DNA of 64,000 bases from an uncultured Spirochaetota bacterium. GTDB lineage: Bacteria > Spirochaetota > Brevinematia > Brevinematales > JAOACQ01. The notes under the pieces were generated by a model. It saw only the letters and a list, made by a program, of their open reading frames with translations. It did no database searches and was not told the origin of the DNA. Positions 45,644-61,265 of this stretch are shown here, in pieces. The translations under genes and the position numbers were made by a program. Within the stretch, counting starts at the first letter, position 1, and each line of letters opens with the position of its first letter. Location of the stretch: the NCBI GenBank assembly GCA_963768055.1, contig CAVYGN010000002.1, positions 1,312,001 to 1,376,000 on the forward strand. Reading direction: 5' to 3'.

Positions 45644-45849
45644 ATCCACAGAATGCACAGATTAAGCGGATTACGGAATTTTCTGTGAAATCCATATGAA
45701 ATTTTGGAAATATGAACTTTTATCTTCTGCTATTTTTCTCGATTAATTGCATAAATAATAATTTAATCTGATTTCACAGATATTTCAAAAACAAAATCTG
45801 TGATTTCCGTGGATCCTCCAGGACTTAATCTTGGTTCCAATCCGTCCCT
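45644..45849. repeat. gene-free cluster of CACAGAT/ATCTGTG inverted repeats
   Basis: ATCCACAGAATGCACAGATT (45644) pairs with AATCTGTGATTTCCGTGGAT (45795). An inner TCTGTGAAATC/GATTTCACAGA pair is present. 45832-45849 is nearly the reverse complement of 59143-59162. Confidence 0.7.
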
Positions 45850-47305: not shown

Positions 47306-47413
47306 GATTTCAAGGGGAAATTACAGGGGGAGACTGTGGATTGCCCGCGAAGCCACACGATACGAAGGGAGGGGGACGGAAATCACAGGGAGACACGGGG
47401 AGACGGAGAGCGG

Positions 47414-47760
47414 TATTGACTATGAACCTCCGTGATAAGCTTGTCAAGATCGGGGTGAAGGTAATAAGTCATGCGCGGTACACGATATTTCAGATGGCTG
47501 AAGCAATACTCGAAAGGATAGAACGGTTCAGGTCTTTGGCTTTGGAAGCAATGTAAGGATTGATTGTAATGAAAAAAACAAGGGGTTACATGTTGTTGAA
47601 TTTTATGAAAGGAATGAATTTTACTGTTTTTCAGCCCAATTCAGGCCTATGAAAGATGGAATTTATGTTGACATGGCAAAATAACTTCTATAAAATATTG
47701 GTAGAAAGCATCGTGAACTGGATTTTTGGAGTTCCAGAATGCTAAATGGGAAATCCCGAT
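47414..47760 (+). mobile_element. IS1380-family remnant (transposase C-terminus plus putative right end)
   Basis: LRDKLVKIGVKVISHARYTIFQMAE..ILERI resembles the IS1380-type transposase C-terminus as I recall it. Candidate terminal repeat ATGGGAAATCCCG at 47746-47758. Confidence 0.65.
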
Positions 47761-48054
47761 TAAAATGGTTGCCGTGAAGCAGTCTATTGAAAGAATCGAT
47801 ATGGCCGGCAAGTCAATCGAAGTTCAGAAGATAAAGCTGTCATTGAGAGGTTTAATGCCCGCATTCTGGTAAATGAGTTTTTACTATCGTTGTTCGGACG
47901 GCATCAGACCTGTACATAAAGGATAGATAGATTATAGTAATTTTAAGATTGAAGTAGAAGTAATTGAATGAATGGGAGAATAACATATTCCCTGAAAGAT
48001 ATTTCGAACGCTATGCTTTCAAAATTGCTTCAATAATAAAATTGGAGATGCTTT

Positions 48055-48756
48055 ATGAATAATAACAAGATAATACACTGGACTGGAATATTCGGATTGA
48101 TCGGGGGAATCTTACTTCTTCTTGAGATACCGCTCTGGATTATACCCGGAGACCCGGGGCAAATTAGTGATGCTGTAGCGCATGCAAATTATTTAGCAAA
48201 TATTAGAATAATTGCATTAACCCGGATACTTATTGATTTGTTCATGTATATGAGCTGGATGATATTATTTGCCGGTTTGAGGCATTTGATCATTATTACA
48301 AAAAAAGAATGCGAATGGATTGCATCCCTAAGTTTTGGAGCGGGGATAGTCTGGTGGACCATAAGTCTTGTAGCTGATGGATTGGAAGGCGGGGCAATTT
48401 TGCTTACGCTCGGTGGTAATACGGATCCGGCATTAGTTAAATCATTAGTTTATGGAACACTCCTTATTTATAACGGTTCCATTGCTTTTGCGATAACCGG
48501 TTTCTTTATGGGAGTTATAGGATATGCGATTATTACAAAAGGTATATTACCAAAGTGGATGGGATGGTTAAGCTGGATCAGCTTTTTTATGTGTATAATC
48601 GCAATTCCTGCAATGTATAGCGGTTTAGTGGATACTAAAGGTTTTTACAATCCTGCCGGATGGGGCCCGGTAATTATTGCCAATATCCCGCCGCTCATCT
48701 GGGTTTTCGTCGTCAGCATCGGGATGATTCGTAAAAGTTTTAAAGAAGATCTTTAA
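48055..48756 (+). CDS. hypothetical multi-pass membrane protein (DUF4386-like)
   Basis: About six hydrophobic segments, GILPKWMGW motif, GGAG RBS, AT-rich codon usage. Confidence 0.7.
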   Translation: MNNNKIIHWTGIFGLIGGILLLLEIPLWIIPGDPGQISDAVAHANYLANIRIIALTRILIDLFMYMSWMILFAGLRHLIIITKKECEWIASLSFGAGIVWWTISLVADGLEGGAILLTLGGNTDPALVKSLVYGTLLIYNGSIAFAITGFFMGVIGYAIITKGILPKWMGWLSWISFFMCIIAIPAMYSGLVDTKGFYNPAGWGPVIIANIPPLIWVFVVSIGMIRKSFKEDL

Positions 48757-49034
48757 TTTTTTCAGCCATGATCCGTGCATTTGGGAAATATGATCGGAGG
48801 GGAGATGTAAATGCTGCGTAATTCATTATATATTAATCAGTTATGGAAAAATTTCTTTTGTTCTCGCTAGGACATCGAAATTACATCTGCATTTATCTGA
48901 GTACCCTACGGGCATAAATAATCTGCGGATCCTTTTCATCCATCCCTCCTCGGCATCCTCACCCTTCGGGCCTTTTGCGTACTCAATCCTTTGCTGGCGG
49001 CTCCGCGGTAATCCTCGATACCCCCGAAAGCGGA

Positions 49035-50012
49035 TCAGTCTAAAATCTGTCTTCTTGAAGCGGTACTATCCGATTCGTTCAGGTCGAATCCGATGCGGTT
49101 AAACGGGAAATACCTGAAAACAGGCCTGCCGATTATATTGTCTTCCGGTATGAACCCGAAATACCTGCTGTCGAGGCTGTCGTCCCTGTTGTCGCCCATG
49201 CCGAAATAATAATTCTGTGAGACCTTCCATTCGGAAATCTCCCTGCCGTCCTTATAAAATTTTCCGTTATCGATAACAATATTTGTATCCCCGGATTCTC
49301 TCTGTACCAATAGAAGCAGCAACTCCTGGTAATATGGATTTTGCTTTAAATTTATAATATCTCCTTTTTTAGGAACATAAATCTCGGGAAATTGATTTAC
49401 CAGTGTATTTATAGATAATAATTTTCCGGAAATATGCTGGACCACTCTCTTTATTCCATTGCATGACTCGTTATAAAGATCATAATCTCTAAAATAGTTT
49501 ATTTTATTTCCATTTTCATTATACTGTATTTCCTGAATGGATTTGATGTAATTCTGCCGGAGAATTTCCCCGTTAATTGTAAGGATCATGTTCGTCATGG
49601 AGATATGATCACCCGGCAATCCAACCAGGCGCTTTACAAGGTTTTTAGGGTTTTCAATGTTATTATCGAGAGTAATCGTCGACAGGGTAACAAGGGATAG
49701 AATTTCCTGAAACTTGCCCTGATTCTTCCATTGAGGGCTCTGAAAGGCGAAAATATCGTTTCTATTCGGTTTAAAAATTCCGGGTATCTTTATATCAATT
49801 AAAGGAATCCTCGGTCCCAGTGTTATTTTCTCGACCATCATTATATCCCTTATGAGAAGGCTCGGGATCATGGAACCTGTAGGAATCTGGTATGCTTCAA
49901 GTAAAAACAACCGGATTACAAAGGCTATGGCATAAGCCGATAAAATTACATAAATATTTTCGATAATCTTCTCTTTAAGGGTCAGAGTTTTCTTATCTTT
50001 TTTCCGTTTCAA
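49035..50012 (-). CDS. lepB: signal peptidase I
   Basis: IPTGSMIPSL, NLVKRLVGLPGD, GMGDNRDDSLDSRYFG. Confidence 0.93.
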   Translation of the reverse strand: MKRKKDKKTLTLKEKIIENIYVILSAYAIAFVIRLFLLEAYQIPTGSMIPSLLIRDIMMVEKITLGPRIPLIDIKIPGIFKPNRNDIFAFQSPQWKNQGKFQEILSLVTLSTITLDNNIENPKNLVKRLVGLPGDHISMTNMILTINGEILRQNYIKSIQEIQYNENGNKINYFRDYDLYNESCNGIKRVVQHISGKLLSINTLVNQFPEIYVPKKGDIINLKQNPYYQELLLLLVQRESGDTNIVIDNGKFYKDGREISEWKVSQNYYFGMGDNRDDSLDSRYFGFIPEDNIIGRPVFRYFPFNRIGFDLNESDSTASRRQILD

Positions 50013-50056: not shown

Positions 50057-52015
50057 TTAGCGGTCGCTGCCTTTTAGATAAATCTGCAGTGTTTGAAGAG
50101 CGGCCGGGGTTACACCGGATATGCGTGAAGCCTGCCCGAGACTTGCGGGTTTGACGAGGGTAAGCTTTTCTATTTGTTCATTTTTCAGGCTCAGAACGCT
50201 TTTATAATCAAAATCCTCGGGTATTTTTATTTTTTCCATATCTTCGAAACGCAAGACCATCTGCCTTTCCTCACGCATATACCCTTCGTATTTTATTTCT
50301 ATTTCGACCTGTTCAATTTCATCAGGAGATAAAACGTGCGGGGGGGTGTAAAAGGGGGCAAGTTTCTCATAAGTTACATCGGGGCGGCGGAGAAGTTCAG
50401 CAAGAGTAACCGATTTAGCTATCTGGAAACTTCCTGTTTTTTTAAGGATTTTCATGGTTTTACCGGAAGGGTTTATCCTTATGCCGCTGAGCCTGTCGAT
50501 CTCCTCATCGATTTTTTTATATTTTCTTTCTACCCGGCTGTAAAGATCTCCTGGGAGTAAACCAAGCTCATAACCCTTTTTCGATAACCTTCTGTCTGCA
50601 TTGTCCTCTCTCAAGATCAGCCTGTATTCCGCCCTTGAAGTGAACATCCTGTAAGGTTCTGTCGTCCCTTTGGCGGTAAGGTCGTCGATCAAAACTCCGA
50701 TATATCCGTCGGACCTTCTCAGGACAAAATCCTCCTTTTCCGCGGCACTGTTCGCCGCATTTATGCCCGCGATTAGCCCCTGTGCCCCTGCCTCCTCGTA
50801 TCCGGTAGTTCCATTGATCTGTCCGGCAAAATATAAATTTTTTACAAGTTTCGTCTCCAGTGTCGGCTTGAGTTCGGTAGGGTCGACATAATCATGCTCC
50901 ACGGCGTATGCAGGGCGCATCATCAAAGCCTTTTCAAGGCCCGGTACGCTGTGGATTATATCCGCCTGGATATCTAGCGGGAAGCCGTTAGAAAGGCCGT
51001 TAGGATAATATTCAACTGTATCCCTGCCTTCGGGTTCTATGAACACATGGTGGCTTTTTCTATCGGGAAATTTCATCACTTTGTCCTCGACAGAGGGGCA
51101 GTAACGTACGCCGGTAGCCTTGATCCTGCCTGAATACATTGGTGCCTGATTGATATTAGCCCGGATAATGGCATGAGTTTGTTCGGTTGTATGCGTCAGG
51201 AAGCAGGGGAGCTGGGTCTGCTGAAAAAATTTATCCGACTTTTCAGTCCAGAATGAAAACGGCTTTATGGGAATATCGCCCGGCTGTTCTTCCATCCTGG
51301 CGAAATCGATAGTCCTACCGTCAAGCCGTGCAGGCGTTCCGGTCTTGAAGCGCCCGGTCCTGAAGCCGTATTCCTTCAATTTTATCGAGATCGGGATGGC
51401 GGGGCCTTCTCCAAGCCGTCCTGCTGGAAAACATCGGGAGCCGATATGAATGATCCCGTTCAAAAAGGTTCCGGGTGTTATGACAACGGTTTTCGAAAAA
51501 TAGCTTATACCCAGGGCGGTTATGACTCCCGACGCCAGGCCGCCGGATATTATAATATCGTCGACATTGTCCTGCCTGACTTCCAGGTTTTTCTGGTTCA
51601 GGACAGTTTTCTGCATATATGACCTGTAAAGGGGTTTATCGCACTGGACCCTTGTAGATCTGACAGCGGGGCCCTTCCTCATATTGAGGGTCCTGAATTG
51701 AACCATGGTGGCGTCCGCAGCTCGGCCCATTTCTCCCCCTAGCGCGTCTATCTCCTTAACAAGCTGGCCCTTGCCTATTCCGCCGATAGATGGGTTGCAG
51801 GGCATCTGGCCTATCAAGTCGATGTTCGGGGTAACAAGGAGCGTCCTGGCCCCCATTCTTGCGGCTGCAAGAGAGGCCTCGATCCCGGCATGGCCTCCTC
51901 CCGCGACTATCACGTCGAATTTTACCGGGTAATGAGCATTATGCGAATTATGAGCATTATGCGAATTATGAGCATTATGCGAATTATGAGCATTATGCGA
52001 ATTATCCAAATGCAT
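50057..52015 (-). CDS. mnmG: tRNA uridine-5-carboxymethylaminomethyl modification enzyme MnmG/GidA
   Basis: [61 protein letters not shown]. In-frame TTG at 52009 is better spaced from GGAGG. Confidence 0.97.
51932..52003. repeat. perfect 18-bp tandem repeat x4 (ATGAGCATTATGCGAATT)
   Basis: Directly visible. Encodes (NSHNAH)4 at the MnmG N-terminus. Confidence 0.97.
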
Positions 52016-59116: not shown

Positions 59117-59314
59117 GTTTTTTTCACAGGGAGACGCGGAGGAGGGACGGGGATTGGAACCACAGATTCCACAGATGGACACAGACGTGCTCTGTAACGG
59201 AATAATTGCGGATGTATCCCTAAGTAACTCAATATAATGCGAAGTAAATTAGTCTAGAAATCATGGTGAGAATAATGTTTATTAATTCTCAAAGGCAACA
59301 TACGGAGGAATATA

Positions 59315-59950
59315 ATGAAGGATTATATTGGTTTAATCACTCAAATATTATTGTTAATTTCTGCAGTAATAGGATTAATTGTTGGAGCATTTGAAATATT
59401 TAAAAAAAGGAAATTTAATATGGAAAAGCAAACTAATACAATAAAAAAAGACTCTTTTCTTAAAGAAACTTTTAAGCCTATGCTTGGTATGCTCGGTGTT
59501 ATTGGATTTATGTTAATTTTTCCATTATTTATTTTTATTTTTAGTCTTTTGATGAAAGCCACATCTTTTGTTTCTAATATTAATGAAAACAAGCATAATT
59601 TAATTTCTTCAATTAGCATTACAAATTTTACTACAAATGATATAAAATATCTAAACTTAATAAATATTGCAGACAAAATAAGTTCATCTTATGACAAAGA
59701 CAAAGCATTAGAGAATATTATTAACAAATTATTAGATTAAAAATCGTATAAATTGTCTTTTTATGCAGCATCAAAAGTTAATTCGGCTAATGAAAAAGAT
59801 ATATTAATAATTAGAATCATTAGCAATTCTTTGGTAGATAAAAACTATTATGATATAGCTGATGCTTTGAATAATGTTAATTCATCCTTTACAAAAGACA
59901 AATGGGCAGTAATATCCATTAATTCAATCATATCAAATTTAACAAATTGA
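59315..59950 (+). pseudogene. AT-rich two-TM protein with helical repeats, interrupted by an in-frame TAA at 59738-59740
   Basis: ORFs 59315-59740 and 59753-59950 are in the same frame. A ~35-aa repeat (ISSSYDKDKAL / VNSANEKDILI / VNSSFTKDKWA) spans the stop. Confidence 0.7.
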
Positions 59951-60239
59951 TCAAGTAAACCTCTTATATTTGATGATGAACATCCGGGTGGAGTTAAACA
60001 TACTCATCCGTTAAATAAAATCGTAGCCTGGGATAAATAACTTCTTACATCTGCCGTTCTTCATAAATCAATCTGTGAAATCCGTAACAAATTATCACAG
60101 CTAGTCATTATTCATATTGATTAGAGTATATGCCATTATCTGTGTAATCCGTGTTTCCGTCTCCCTACCCTCCGTCTCCGCTCTTTCCGTGTACTCTACT
60201 ATTCTTTGTGCCTCTACGGTGATCCCCCGTCAGTTTTGA

Positions 60240-61139
60240 TCATGACATAACCAACTCATGAAGCAATCCGTCCACCGAAGCAGGGGGTGCTCCGGTAGCC
60301 CGCTCTACGGTATCGGAAACAGGACCTTCAAACAATTGAAACCCTCCGCAGTAATCGACAATTTGCTGCGCCGATTCCAAGGTCATACCGTTCGCCGCCA
60401 ATCTTTCCACTACTTCCTTGCCGGGCAGGATTTGAGCCTCTAATTTACGCCCATGCAGGCTTGACCATCTCTGCGCTAAGTCGGCAAGGCCGAGCGCTTC
60501 AGGACCTGTTACTTCTACGGCCCCGTTAAACAAAGCCTTACCTGTCAAAACATAAGCTGCTGTGCGGGCATAATCCTCATGCGAAACCCAGCAGGGCCTG
60601 CCGGAACCTTCCGGTACGAGCAATTGATCGCCTATGCGCAAAGCATTAAGAAAATACGGTACTCCATCCATCCAGATATTCATACAAAGCGCCGTCCAGG
60701 CGGCGCCGGAACGGGCAAGTTCCTGCATAGTTTGCCCATGGCCCCGCGTCCAGGGATTTTCATCATCTTTATTCGCCGCATCCGGCAAAGCTGTACTCGT
60801 GATATGCCGTATTCCTGCTTTGATTGCGGCTGCGATTGCAGCCCTTTGCTGAGCAGAGCGTTTTTCCATTGGATATTCATTAGTACCGATAATCAGCAGC
60901 CTCGTTGCACCGGAAAATGCTGCTGGCAAGGCCGAGGGATCGTTGAAATCGGCTCTTCGAACAGTAACCCCTTGAACTGTAAAATCCGCCAACAGTTCAG
61001 GATTCCGAGTCGTTGCGAGGATTTGCTTTGCCGGCACAAGATCCAGTAAATAAGTAACAACAAGACGGCCAAGGCGGCCATTAGCGCCGGTAAGACAATA
61101 AATATCGTCCGGGTTGACATTTCCGTTATTATTTAACAT
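60240..61139 (-). CDS. NmrA-like/atypical SDR NAD(P)H-binding oxidoreductase
   Basis: LTGANGRLG, VRRADF, AFSGATRLLII, VTGPEAL. ATG at 61139 has GGAGG 7 nt upstream (the ORF track extends to 61232). Confidence 0.88.
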   Translation of the reverse strand: MLNNNGNVNPDDIYCLTGANGRLGRLVVTYLLDLVPAKQILATTRNPELLADFTVQGVTVRRADFNDPSALPAAFSGATRLLIIGTNEYPMEKRSAQQRAAIAAAIKAGIRHITSTALPDAANKDDENPWTRGHGQTMQELARSGAAWTALCMNIWMDGVPYFLNALRIGDQLLVPEGSGRPCWVSHEDYARTAAYVLTGKALFNGAVEVTGPEALGLADLAQRWSSLHGRKLEAQILPGKEVVERLAANGMTLESAQQIVDYCGGFQLFEGPVSDTVERATGAPPASVDGLLHELVMS

Positions 61140-61265
61140 AAAACATCCTCCTATCCATTTGAAATAAATTATACACCCTGTTGTATAGAACAGTGTCAAG
61201 CTTTTATTAAGAAAGGATAGTTTTTTTTTCAAGGTTTGCCTTGGTTTTCACAGGTGTGGTTTCCA

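Follow-up and report, generated by a model that had tools for sequence, protein, structure and literature searches.

Integron cassettes are small, mostly single-gene and promoter-poor units that combine unrelated cargo with imperfect palindromic attC sites. The repetitive extragenic palindromes (REPs), in the form of bacterial interspersed mosaic elements (BIMEs) or of hairpin-forming REP pairs (REPINs) with REP-associated tyrosine transposases (RAYTs), are short, multi-copy extragenic sequences that are often found at the 3' ends of genes and in inverted pairs, with the repeats flanking a single small gene; they are species-specific. In the account given by PMC3913671 (citing Chen et al. 1999), mobile insertion cassettes (MICs) are defined by inverted-repeat ends around passenger genes. 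The intervening sequences of Coxiella and Leptospira 23S rRNA are described in PMC4990558 as low-GC inserts of about 0.4 kb, with a small open reading frame (ORF) of unknown function and complementary termini, and as sporadic elements long suspected of being mobile. Here we describe positions 59117-60239 of a 64,000-nucleotide stretch, referred to as the window, from an uncultured Spirochaetota bacterium (C2:1312001-1376000 of the genome called G000 below; coordinates without a contig prefix are window positions). The locus is a low-GC insert between two convergent genes, bounded by inverted arms of CACAGATTN units. We consider it, with a probability of roughly one half, to be a non-autonomous, cargo-carrying and decaying copy of a family of nonamer-arm insertion cassettes that is moved in trans by a small nuclease, GxxExxY (PF13366).

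The insert resembles cassettes of the MIC231/IS231 type and miniature inverted-repeat transposable elements (MITEs), whose ends enclose no gene, in having inverted-repeat ends and no transposase inside, and those elements are likewise thought to be moved in trans; terminal inverted repeats without an enclosed transposase gene were found at 59117-60239. The nonamer cassettes differ from them in that no target-site duplication is seen, the ends are arrays of 9-bp units, the end motif spans many phyla, and the only protein regularly present inside is a 125-aa PD-(D/E)XK nuclease, which is not a known transposase. Moreover, no insertion sequence (IS) with matching ends was found among the two types checked, IS21 and an IS1380-like element. 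IS21 was rejected as the mobiliser on account of its own ends and nested insertion, and the IS1380-like element because its ends are unrelated to the arms.

Like REPs, the nonamer arms are dispersed extragenic palindromic repeats that often stand in inverted pairs. However, the arms are tandem nonamers rather than a single REP stem-loop, the motif is common to many phyla, and the cassettes carry cargo of up to a two-gene defense system. The cassette protein is a PD-(D/E)XK nuclease and no Y1 transposase was found: a search for PF01797 gave no match in G000, an assembly that is 94.75% complete, and was positive in 6 of 14 control genomes. The 23S intervening sequences are similar in placing a low-GC insert with a small ORF between complementary ends, but 59117-60239 lies between protein-coding genes and not in rRNA, and no PF05635 gene was matched in G000. 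Compared with integrons, it was noted that IntI, attI and cassette arrays were not found in this genome and that each cassette has two inverted ends instead of one attC. The best match to the integron integrase model TIGR02249 scored 87.8 bits, where the cut-off is 265; matches of similar sub-threshold strength, which come from ordinary recombinases, occur in each of the 14 control genomes. What the locus does possess is a pair of inverted arrays, each of at least two to three units with a period of about 9 bp, around a low-GC insert, the arrangement by which we recognize a nonamer-arm cassette. This family appears to be undescribed. In the literature we found no paper on six 16-nt arm strings, on nonamer-arm brackets, on a link between GxxExxY and repeats, or on a function for PF13366, and the function of PF13366 is entered as 'Unknown' in PMC3424549.

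We sought to characterize the boundaries of the insert. GC content falls to 25.3% at 59200-60040 and is 30.4% across 59117-60239, compared with 46.0% and 49.1% in the two flanking genes and 43.2% in the whole window. The left edge of the insert reads TCACAGGGAGACGCGGAGGAGGGACGGGGATTGGAACCACAGATTCCACAGATGGACACAGA, with its reverse complement on the right edge, and three CACAGA units spaced 9-10 nt apart occupy 59161-59190. The best inverted repeat pairs 59141-59176 with 60138-60173 (36 nt, 75% complementary), and a gapped local alignment of the left flank against the reverse-complemented right flank scored 32, compared with a mean of 16.0 (sd 2.1, maximum 24) over 200 shuffles. The whole-genome repeat-family profile matched 59150-59185 on the plus strand (E 1.1e-7, 33 bits) and 60163-60128 on the minus strand (E 4.9e-4). 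The outer G-rich parts of the flanks (59124-59150 and 60156-60195) belong to a second family of the CACRGRGAG type, whose arms also bracket a GxxExxY gene at C2:304862-305212. The inner CACAGATTN arms lie inside those of the second family, so that one bracket encloses the other.

An earlier note on this DNA, made from its letters alone, had described an AT-rich ORF between a left flank with a period of about 9 nt and a complementary right flank, and these descriptions hold. The strings that it had quoted were also found where it had placed them: TCACAGGGAGAC occurs only at 47383 and 59124 (0.10 expected; 1 of 100 shuffles reached two occurrences), and TTACATCTGC only at 48881 and 60045. Its further claim that both flanks match those of an islet at 47310-49030 stands for these shared exact strings, but the likeness of the right flanks did not exceed shuffled sequence (22; shuffles 16.0, sd 3.2, maximum 32). 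The two flanks of that islet do not form a significant inverted pair (17 compared with 16.2, sd 2.3). The note had also stated that the window encodes no recombinase. No tyrosine-recombinase-like, GxxExxY or IS1380-type transposase match and no IS21 copy was detected in the window, save for a 20-residue remnant of an IS1380-type transposase C-terminus at 47428-47487 (19 of 20 residues identical to a PF13701 fragment).

Across the 3.69-Mb genome, an ungapped inverted-repeat scan proved too insensitive for these arms, and a profile search was used instead. The repeat consensus was GGAyyGRAACC followed by CACAGATTN x3 and a short hairpin, and the search gave 81 matches at E<10, of which 54 pass E<0.05 and are counted as arms. 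Eighteen convergent (+/-) arm pairs of 65-3016 bp were found, 59117-60239 among them; the only further close arm neighbors were one -/+ pair and one run of three minus-strand copies. The copies of this run (C1:974705, 975826 and 978892) have identical extended flanks and lie beside IS1380-type transposase fragments, and C1:974705-978928 looks like a duplicated segment rather than separate cassettes. Interior GC was 21-32% in 15 of the 18 pairs, compared with 37-51% in their flanks; the exceptions were a 65-bp gene-less pair, a 184-bp gene-less pair and the pair that holds IS21. The interiors are unrelated to one another except at their ends, where two conserved types were noted, A (~75 nt, 7 clustered) and B (~62 nt, 9 clustered), which are common to the GxxExxY cassettes and to cassettes without that gene. 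A recent burst of copies was rejected, as interiors are unrelated both in G000 and in 10 sampled elements of the same-genus species G004.

Six other copies were compared with four same-genus species (G001-G004). At C2:83461-84227, the same convergent genes lie only 3-30 nt apart in G001, G002 and G003, without arms. The gap is 5-11 nt in G001 and G002 at the site of C2:1294071-1295384, and about 9 nt in G003 at that of the GxxExxY cassette C1:1559772-1560298. The genes around C2:197216-198261 overlap in G002 and are separated by a plain 47-nt spacer in G003. Around the 65-bp gene-less palindrome C1:923930-923994, the flanks are 0-3 bp apart in G001 and G002 compared with 162 bp in G000, and G003 and G004 have shorter spacers from which the palindrome is absent. 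The flanks of the sixth copy, a cassette with a Septu defense system, were not syntenic in the compared species. Five of the six copies are thus insertions relative to at least one same-genus species, which has the same flanking genes and neither arms nor cargo. The empty sites examined in G001-G003 are armless, and the arms therefore arrived there with the insert. At two intergenic sites that hold a CACAGATTN cassette in G000, however, G004 has palindromes of other units exactly at the cassette position (CACRGAATAT and CACGAAG). In G001 one of the two holds a different repeat again, and G002 and G003 have nothing inserted. The reuse of sites in a sister species, together with the nested arms of the present locus, leaves some room for preferred insertion into existing palindromes.

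The cassettes enclose diverse genes, as determined from Pfam and PADLOC scans of the enclosed ORFs. Three CACAGATTN cassettes enclose GxxExxY genes, and the copy at 59117-60239 has none. A complete Septu system (PtuA, E 8e-68; PtuB/HNH, E 2e-9) lies between CACAGATTN arms at C1:1098730-1100936 in DNA of 30% GC with convergent neighbor genes (locus L139). A type II DNA methyltransferase is represented in one cassette by its N-terminal half. Another encodes a small Hol-Tox-like membrane protein, of which a further cassette holds a paralogue, and there are also several orphans and one ORF that looks like a lipoprotein gene. An IS21 element (IstA, 513 aa; IstB, 248 aa) is present in one CACAGATTN cassette and has 10 genomic copies at 99.8-100% identity, including C1:109768-112217; it is evidently active. 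Because it has its own ends and these near-identical copies, we regard its presence in the cassette as a secondary insertion.

The association with GxxExxY was examined within and beyond this genome. All five PF13366 genes of G000 are bracketed by inverted short-period arrays, with CACAGATTN units around three of them, CACRGAGN around one and CGCAAAGGN around one. The suggestion that GxxExxY PD-(D/E)XK proteins co-occur with the repeats is thereby borne out. The GxxExxY cassettes are compact (513-531 bp), and their A and B ends are the same from genome to genome. We fetched 80 metagenomic relatives of the protein, 73 of them with usable flanks, and by our own criteria found inverted arrays of 9-bp period around 47 of the 73, with unit cores that include CAGAT, CGAAT, CGAAA, CGAAG, CGGAA and others. 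When 76 of the proteins are placed on a tree, unit type goes with clade, requiring 13 changes across the 50 rows that carry a label (10 states); there are exceptions, such as CAGAT arms, which surround three unrelated clades. The D, E and K of the PD-(D/E)XK site and the G..E..Y motif are invariant in all 76 sequences. A structure model of the 125-aa protein reached a pLDDT of 93.8, and its closest fold was Cas4 SSO0001 (E 8e-4), followed by a restriction-endonuclease-like protein (3ijm) and lambda exonuclease, with Hjc at about the 32nd place. A search of PDB sequences with the GxxExxY profile gave no match.

The arm motif is found far beyond the Spirochaetota. The 18-base motif AACCACAGATTNCACAGAT occurs at no fewer than 126 loci in species genomes from more than 20 bacterial and archaeal lineages. 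Those listed include Chloroflexota, Planctomycetota, Verrucomicrobiota, Acidobacteriota, Bacteroidota, Spirochaetota, Alpha- and Gammaproteobacteria, Bacillota, NC10, WOR-3, Omnitrophota, relatives of Cyanobacteriota and ANME-1/Methanophagales archaea, among others, and host GC at the listed loci ranges from 28% to 70%. Most of the listed loci are short palindromes without cargo (39 pairs below 200 bp compared with 7 longer ones). In its own phylum, the strict motif was found in 6 of 401 genomes, in multiple copies only in G000 (18) and G004 (26), with no match in G001-G003; there, a reversed control pattern gave no match anywhere. A patchy distribution of this kind suggests that the motif arrived horizontally and then expanded locally. 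The motif was also encountered on 32 stretches of IMG/VR viral contigs (loci L264-L295), including one 22.9-kb contig with several copies, and none of these stretches has a GxxExxY gene within 1.5 kb.

In G000, 27 of the 54 arms start between -10 and +40 nt past the stop of a co-oriented ORF, compared with 8.9% for random intergenic positions (p about 8e-15, on crude ORF calls). Convergent spacers hold 7 of 17 classified pairs and comprise 13.5% of intergenic bases (p 0.0046); in other phyla, 12 of 29 classified pairs among the listed motif loci are convergent, usually within 30 nt of ORF ends. Cargo runs in the direction of its neighbors in 5 of 5 tandem contexts that hold cargo. A gene-less palindrome folds at -19 kcal/mol (z -6.5), and the individual arms of 59117-60239 fold insignificantly alone (z -1.8 and -0.7). 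Cognate arms pair no better than non-cognate ones (-33.3 compared with -35.5 kcal/mol; permutation p 0.97), so that the arms look constrained by the family consensus, as expected of a sequence-reading factor, and not by partner pairing. Pairing between the two arms of one element was accordingly discarded as a signal, as it held nothing beyond that consensus.

The features of the locus are collected in Table 1. The interior of the insert is decaying, mosaic DNA, made of a broken orphan ORF and what is left of the 3' end of a methyltransferase gene. The in-frame TAA that ends the 141-aa ORF is spanned by three repeats of 99 nt (33 aa), located at 59683, 59782 and 59881 (spacing 99 and 99), and this cargo gene was probably broken recently. 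No Pfam, NCBIfam or PADLOC family above noise was found for the ORF, and its sole match among 5.8 billion proteins was itself, in a search that covered proteins of 77-247 aa and relies on shared words. The remnant has 84% identity to G004:C2:627-701, the C-terminus of a 206-aa ORF ending in ...FDDEHPGGIKHTHPLNKIVAWKK, and the methyltransferase gene is intact in G004; we presume the gene to be 'TehB-like'. A two-part end homologous to the right sub-arm is present at C2:1448000-1448092. The left flanking protein has an HDIG domain (32.4 bits, cut-off 27.6) and scores 129 bits against a c-di-GMP phosphodiesterase model, which is under that model's cut-off. The right flanking protein gave only a weak match, to TIGR03649, and we take it to be NmrA-like from what we read as an N-terminal Rossmann motif. 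Between 58900 and 60450, neither promoter-like sites (8 compared with 6.4, sd 2.6, in shuffles) nor terminator-like sites (2 compared with 1.0) were enriched.

Table 1. Features of the low-GC insert and its two neighbors, with the palindromes of other units that G004 has at two cassette sites of G000 (last row).
Feature	Coordinates	Strand	Remarks
Left flanking gene, HAMP/HD-GYP-type signalling protein, 636 aa	57206..59116	+	stop codon 7 nt before outer arm
Outer left arm, second repeat family (TCACAGGGAGAC GCGGAGGAGGGACGG)	59124..59150	+	
Inner left arm, A-type end of CACAGATTN family: GGATTGGAACC, three CACAGA units, small CACAGACGTGCTCTGTG-like hairpin	59150..59197	+	
Cargo ORF, 141 aa, N-terminal half hydrophobic	59315..59740	+	
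In-frame TAA (59738-59740), then 65-aa continuation in the same frame (59753-59950)	59738..59950	+	
3' remnant (last ~24 codons and stop) of SAM methyltransferase gene	59966..60040	+	
Inner right sub-arm (reverse complement ACGGATTTCACAGATTG...GGCAGATGTAA)	60045..60090	-	profile E 0.73 alone
Inner right arm, CACAGATTN family (reverse complement GGAAACACGGATTACACAGATAA)	60128..60163	-	profile E 4.9e-4, 21.5 bits
Outer right arm, second family (reverse complement CACGGAAAGAGCGGAGACGGAGGGTAGGGAGACGG)	60156..60195	-	pairs with 59124-59150
Right flanking gene, 330 aa by longest ORF, convergent with left gene	60240..61232	-	
Other-unit palindromes of G004	G004:C2 about 138719-139024; G004:C3:69318-69752		loci L252, L253

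Other repeats were noted in and around the window. The second islet (47310-49035) has stacked arm-like repeats on its left (47330-47415), a 233-aa multi-pass membrane ORF without a family (48055-48756), and a degenerate right arm that abuts the stop of a signal-peptidase-like gene. A gene-less CACAGAT pair of about 164 bp (45647-45811) is flanked by an ABC-permease-like ORF on one side and by the 3' end of a capD-like gene on the other. At 51938-52004, an 18-nt unit (GAGCATTATGCGAATTAT) is repeated four times in tandem within a called ORF. The exact 16-mer ACCCTACGGGCATAAA occurs at 48903-48918 and at about 13 other places in G000; it is hairpin-like and is also present inside some arms. Outside the window, three different arm types are stacked at C2:1447900-1448100, bordering a larger island of low GC with genes that, by eye, look defense-like. 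No Rfam family reached its gathering score anywhere in the window.

How such cassettes might move can be outlined from these comparisons. The cassette ends would be inverted arrays of 9-bp units (CACAGATTN x3 at this locus) set within A and B ends that are asymmetric and measure about 60-75 nt, and the arms would act as cis-acting sites recognized by sequence and not by hairpin shape alone. The family's own protein would be the small Cas4-like PD-(D/E)XK nuclease GxxExxY, whose gene lies between these A and B ends in 3 of the 18 copies. It would act in trans on copies that lack its gene, and anything between the arms would travel as well. Movement would leave no target-site duplication and would land just downstream of stop codons, by one of two variants: cutting and insertion, or the cutting of an existing palindrome with repair from a filled copy. 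The copy at 59117-60239 would have arrived as one unit, probably into a very short spacer between convergent genes, and would now sit between the halves of an older, second-family palindrome. We favor ends that are read by a protein supplied by the GxxExxY cassettes because the A and B ends are conserved, they are shared with cassettes lacking the gene, no duplication is seen, and neither IntI nor Y1 was found. GxxExxY is our candidate for the mobilizing enzyme, and its manner of cutting or copying is likewise a proposal. A broader formulation is more tentative: the cassettes might form a new mobile class of Bacteria and Archaea in which GxxExxY is a transposase or homing enzyme that reads the 9-bp units, with the rRNA intervening sequences as a special case. 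Such an enzyme would move or copy cargo, without duplicating the target site, to positions just past stop codons or into the centers of palindromes, complete anti-phage systems such as Septu included. We hold this to be possible but doubtful.

Several observations weigh against the cassette reading. The genes that flank 59117-60239 are adjacent in none of 30 relatives, and the copy thus has no empty-site comparison. No target-site duplication was found at offsets 0-25 in the 18 elements, where a direct repeat of at least 4 nt in at least three elements, or of at least 5 nt in at least two, was required; the sole signal was three chance-level trinucleotides. This makes classical DDE-type transposition unlikely and leaves the element boundaries not pinned down. 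G000 has no near-identical pair of copies, the 10 sampled G004 elements likewise share ends only, and there is therefore no sign of recent movement. Only 14 of the 502 low-GC islets of the genome have both arms. Elsewhere, the GxxExxY gene was found beside the motif at 2 of the 126 loci among those listed, and its link is therefore a statistical one, although this rarity would be expected if most copies are non-autonomous. Relatives share unit labels, and clade tracking therefore shows co-inheritance and not binding. Finally, one cargo family has homologues without visible arms in G001 and G003, the same family lies in opposite orientations in two cassettes with co-linear ends, and the interior at 59117-60239 is a mosaic that includes a gene remnant; with these, the arrival of cargo after the arms fits as well as joint travel.

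Such late arrival of cargo is the core of an alternative in which the arms mark a site rather than the ends of delivered DNA: gene-less palindromes would have spread first, and their centers would then be preferred or tolerated entry points for AT-rich DNA, palindromes and insertion sequences. Of the rival explanations, this is the closest to the earlier note's idea of cargo delivered into pre-existing repeat-bounded sites. The flipped, armless and mosaic cargo is as this alternative predicts, and so are the dominance of cargo-less copies in other lineages, the insertion of a gene-less palindrome as judged against G001 and G002, and the IS21 inserted within one cassette. It also draws on the arms of different families that are nested or stacked at 59124-59197 / 60128-60195, at C2:1447900-1448035 and at viral locus L273, and on the palindromes of other units that occupy two cassette positions in G004. 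The armless empty sites examined in G001-G003 speak against delivery into existing repeats, as do the compact GxxExxY cassettes with the same ends across genomes and the tracking of clade by unit type. No recombinase or integrase was found that could deliver the cargo, and 488 of the 502 low-GC islets do not have arms at both edges (479 have none nearby), and AT-rich DNA therefore needs no such sites. On balance we judge this account unlikely, though nested arms, reused sites in G004 and cargo in either orientation or outside brackets keep it in contention.

The placement of the arms could instead reflect an effect on RNA. The arms would pair in the transcript into a long stem, which would either terminate or insulate transcription or serve as a substrate of RNase III, so that an insert at the 3' end of a gene would be harmless and the cargo mRNA would be released. 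The arms that abut stop codons, the excess of convergent spacers, the co-directional cargo and the stable fold of the gene-less palindrome all suit this explanation, and in the account of PMC4990558 the low-GC, ORF-bearing Coxiella intervening sequence has a 28-bp terminal stem that is cut by RNase III. However, the indifference of cognate pairing speaks against it, no Rfam family was matched, and one palindrome lies within an operon directly upstream of a fabZ-like gene, where a strong terminator would be polar. It would explain tolerance and placement but not spread, and as an account of the family we consider it improbable. The integron-like mechanism that the earlier note had proposed, with a tyrosine recombinase encoded elsewhere that inserts circular cassettes at the repeats, is largely refuted and has very little chance of being correct. 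The promoter-poor single-gene cassettes, imperfect inverted repeats and unrelated cargo do recall integrons, and the outermost conserved AAC...GTT may resemble the attC core. It nevertheless fails on the sub-threshold integrase match, on cassettes that are scattered singly and never form same-direction arrays by an attI, on two inverted half-sites per cassette in place of one attC after the gene, and on armless empty sites. The note fared better in its expectation that oppositely oriented arms would enclose low-GC, unrelated and variable cargo: the 18 convergent pairs, their interiors alike at the ends only, the absence of the element from same-genus species for five of six other copies and the lack of any relative of the 141-aa ORF all agree with it.

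If the reading of nonamer-arm cassettes moved in trans by GxxExxY is true, a very common and unnamed type of repeat would be explained concretely, as a cassette system that is selfish and whose enzyme can be tested. This explanation would extend to one of the most widespread small proteins known by a motif name only, and possibly to the ORF-bearing rRNA intervening sequences. This genome adds that the brackets hold unrelated genes, even a whole defense system, and that they are true insertions compared with sister species, placed into spacers of a few bases between stop codons without leaving a duplication. In practice, the arms offer an inexpensive sequence marker by which to locate accessory genes and the boundaries of insertions in metagenome-assembled genomes.

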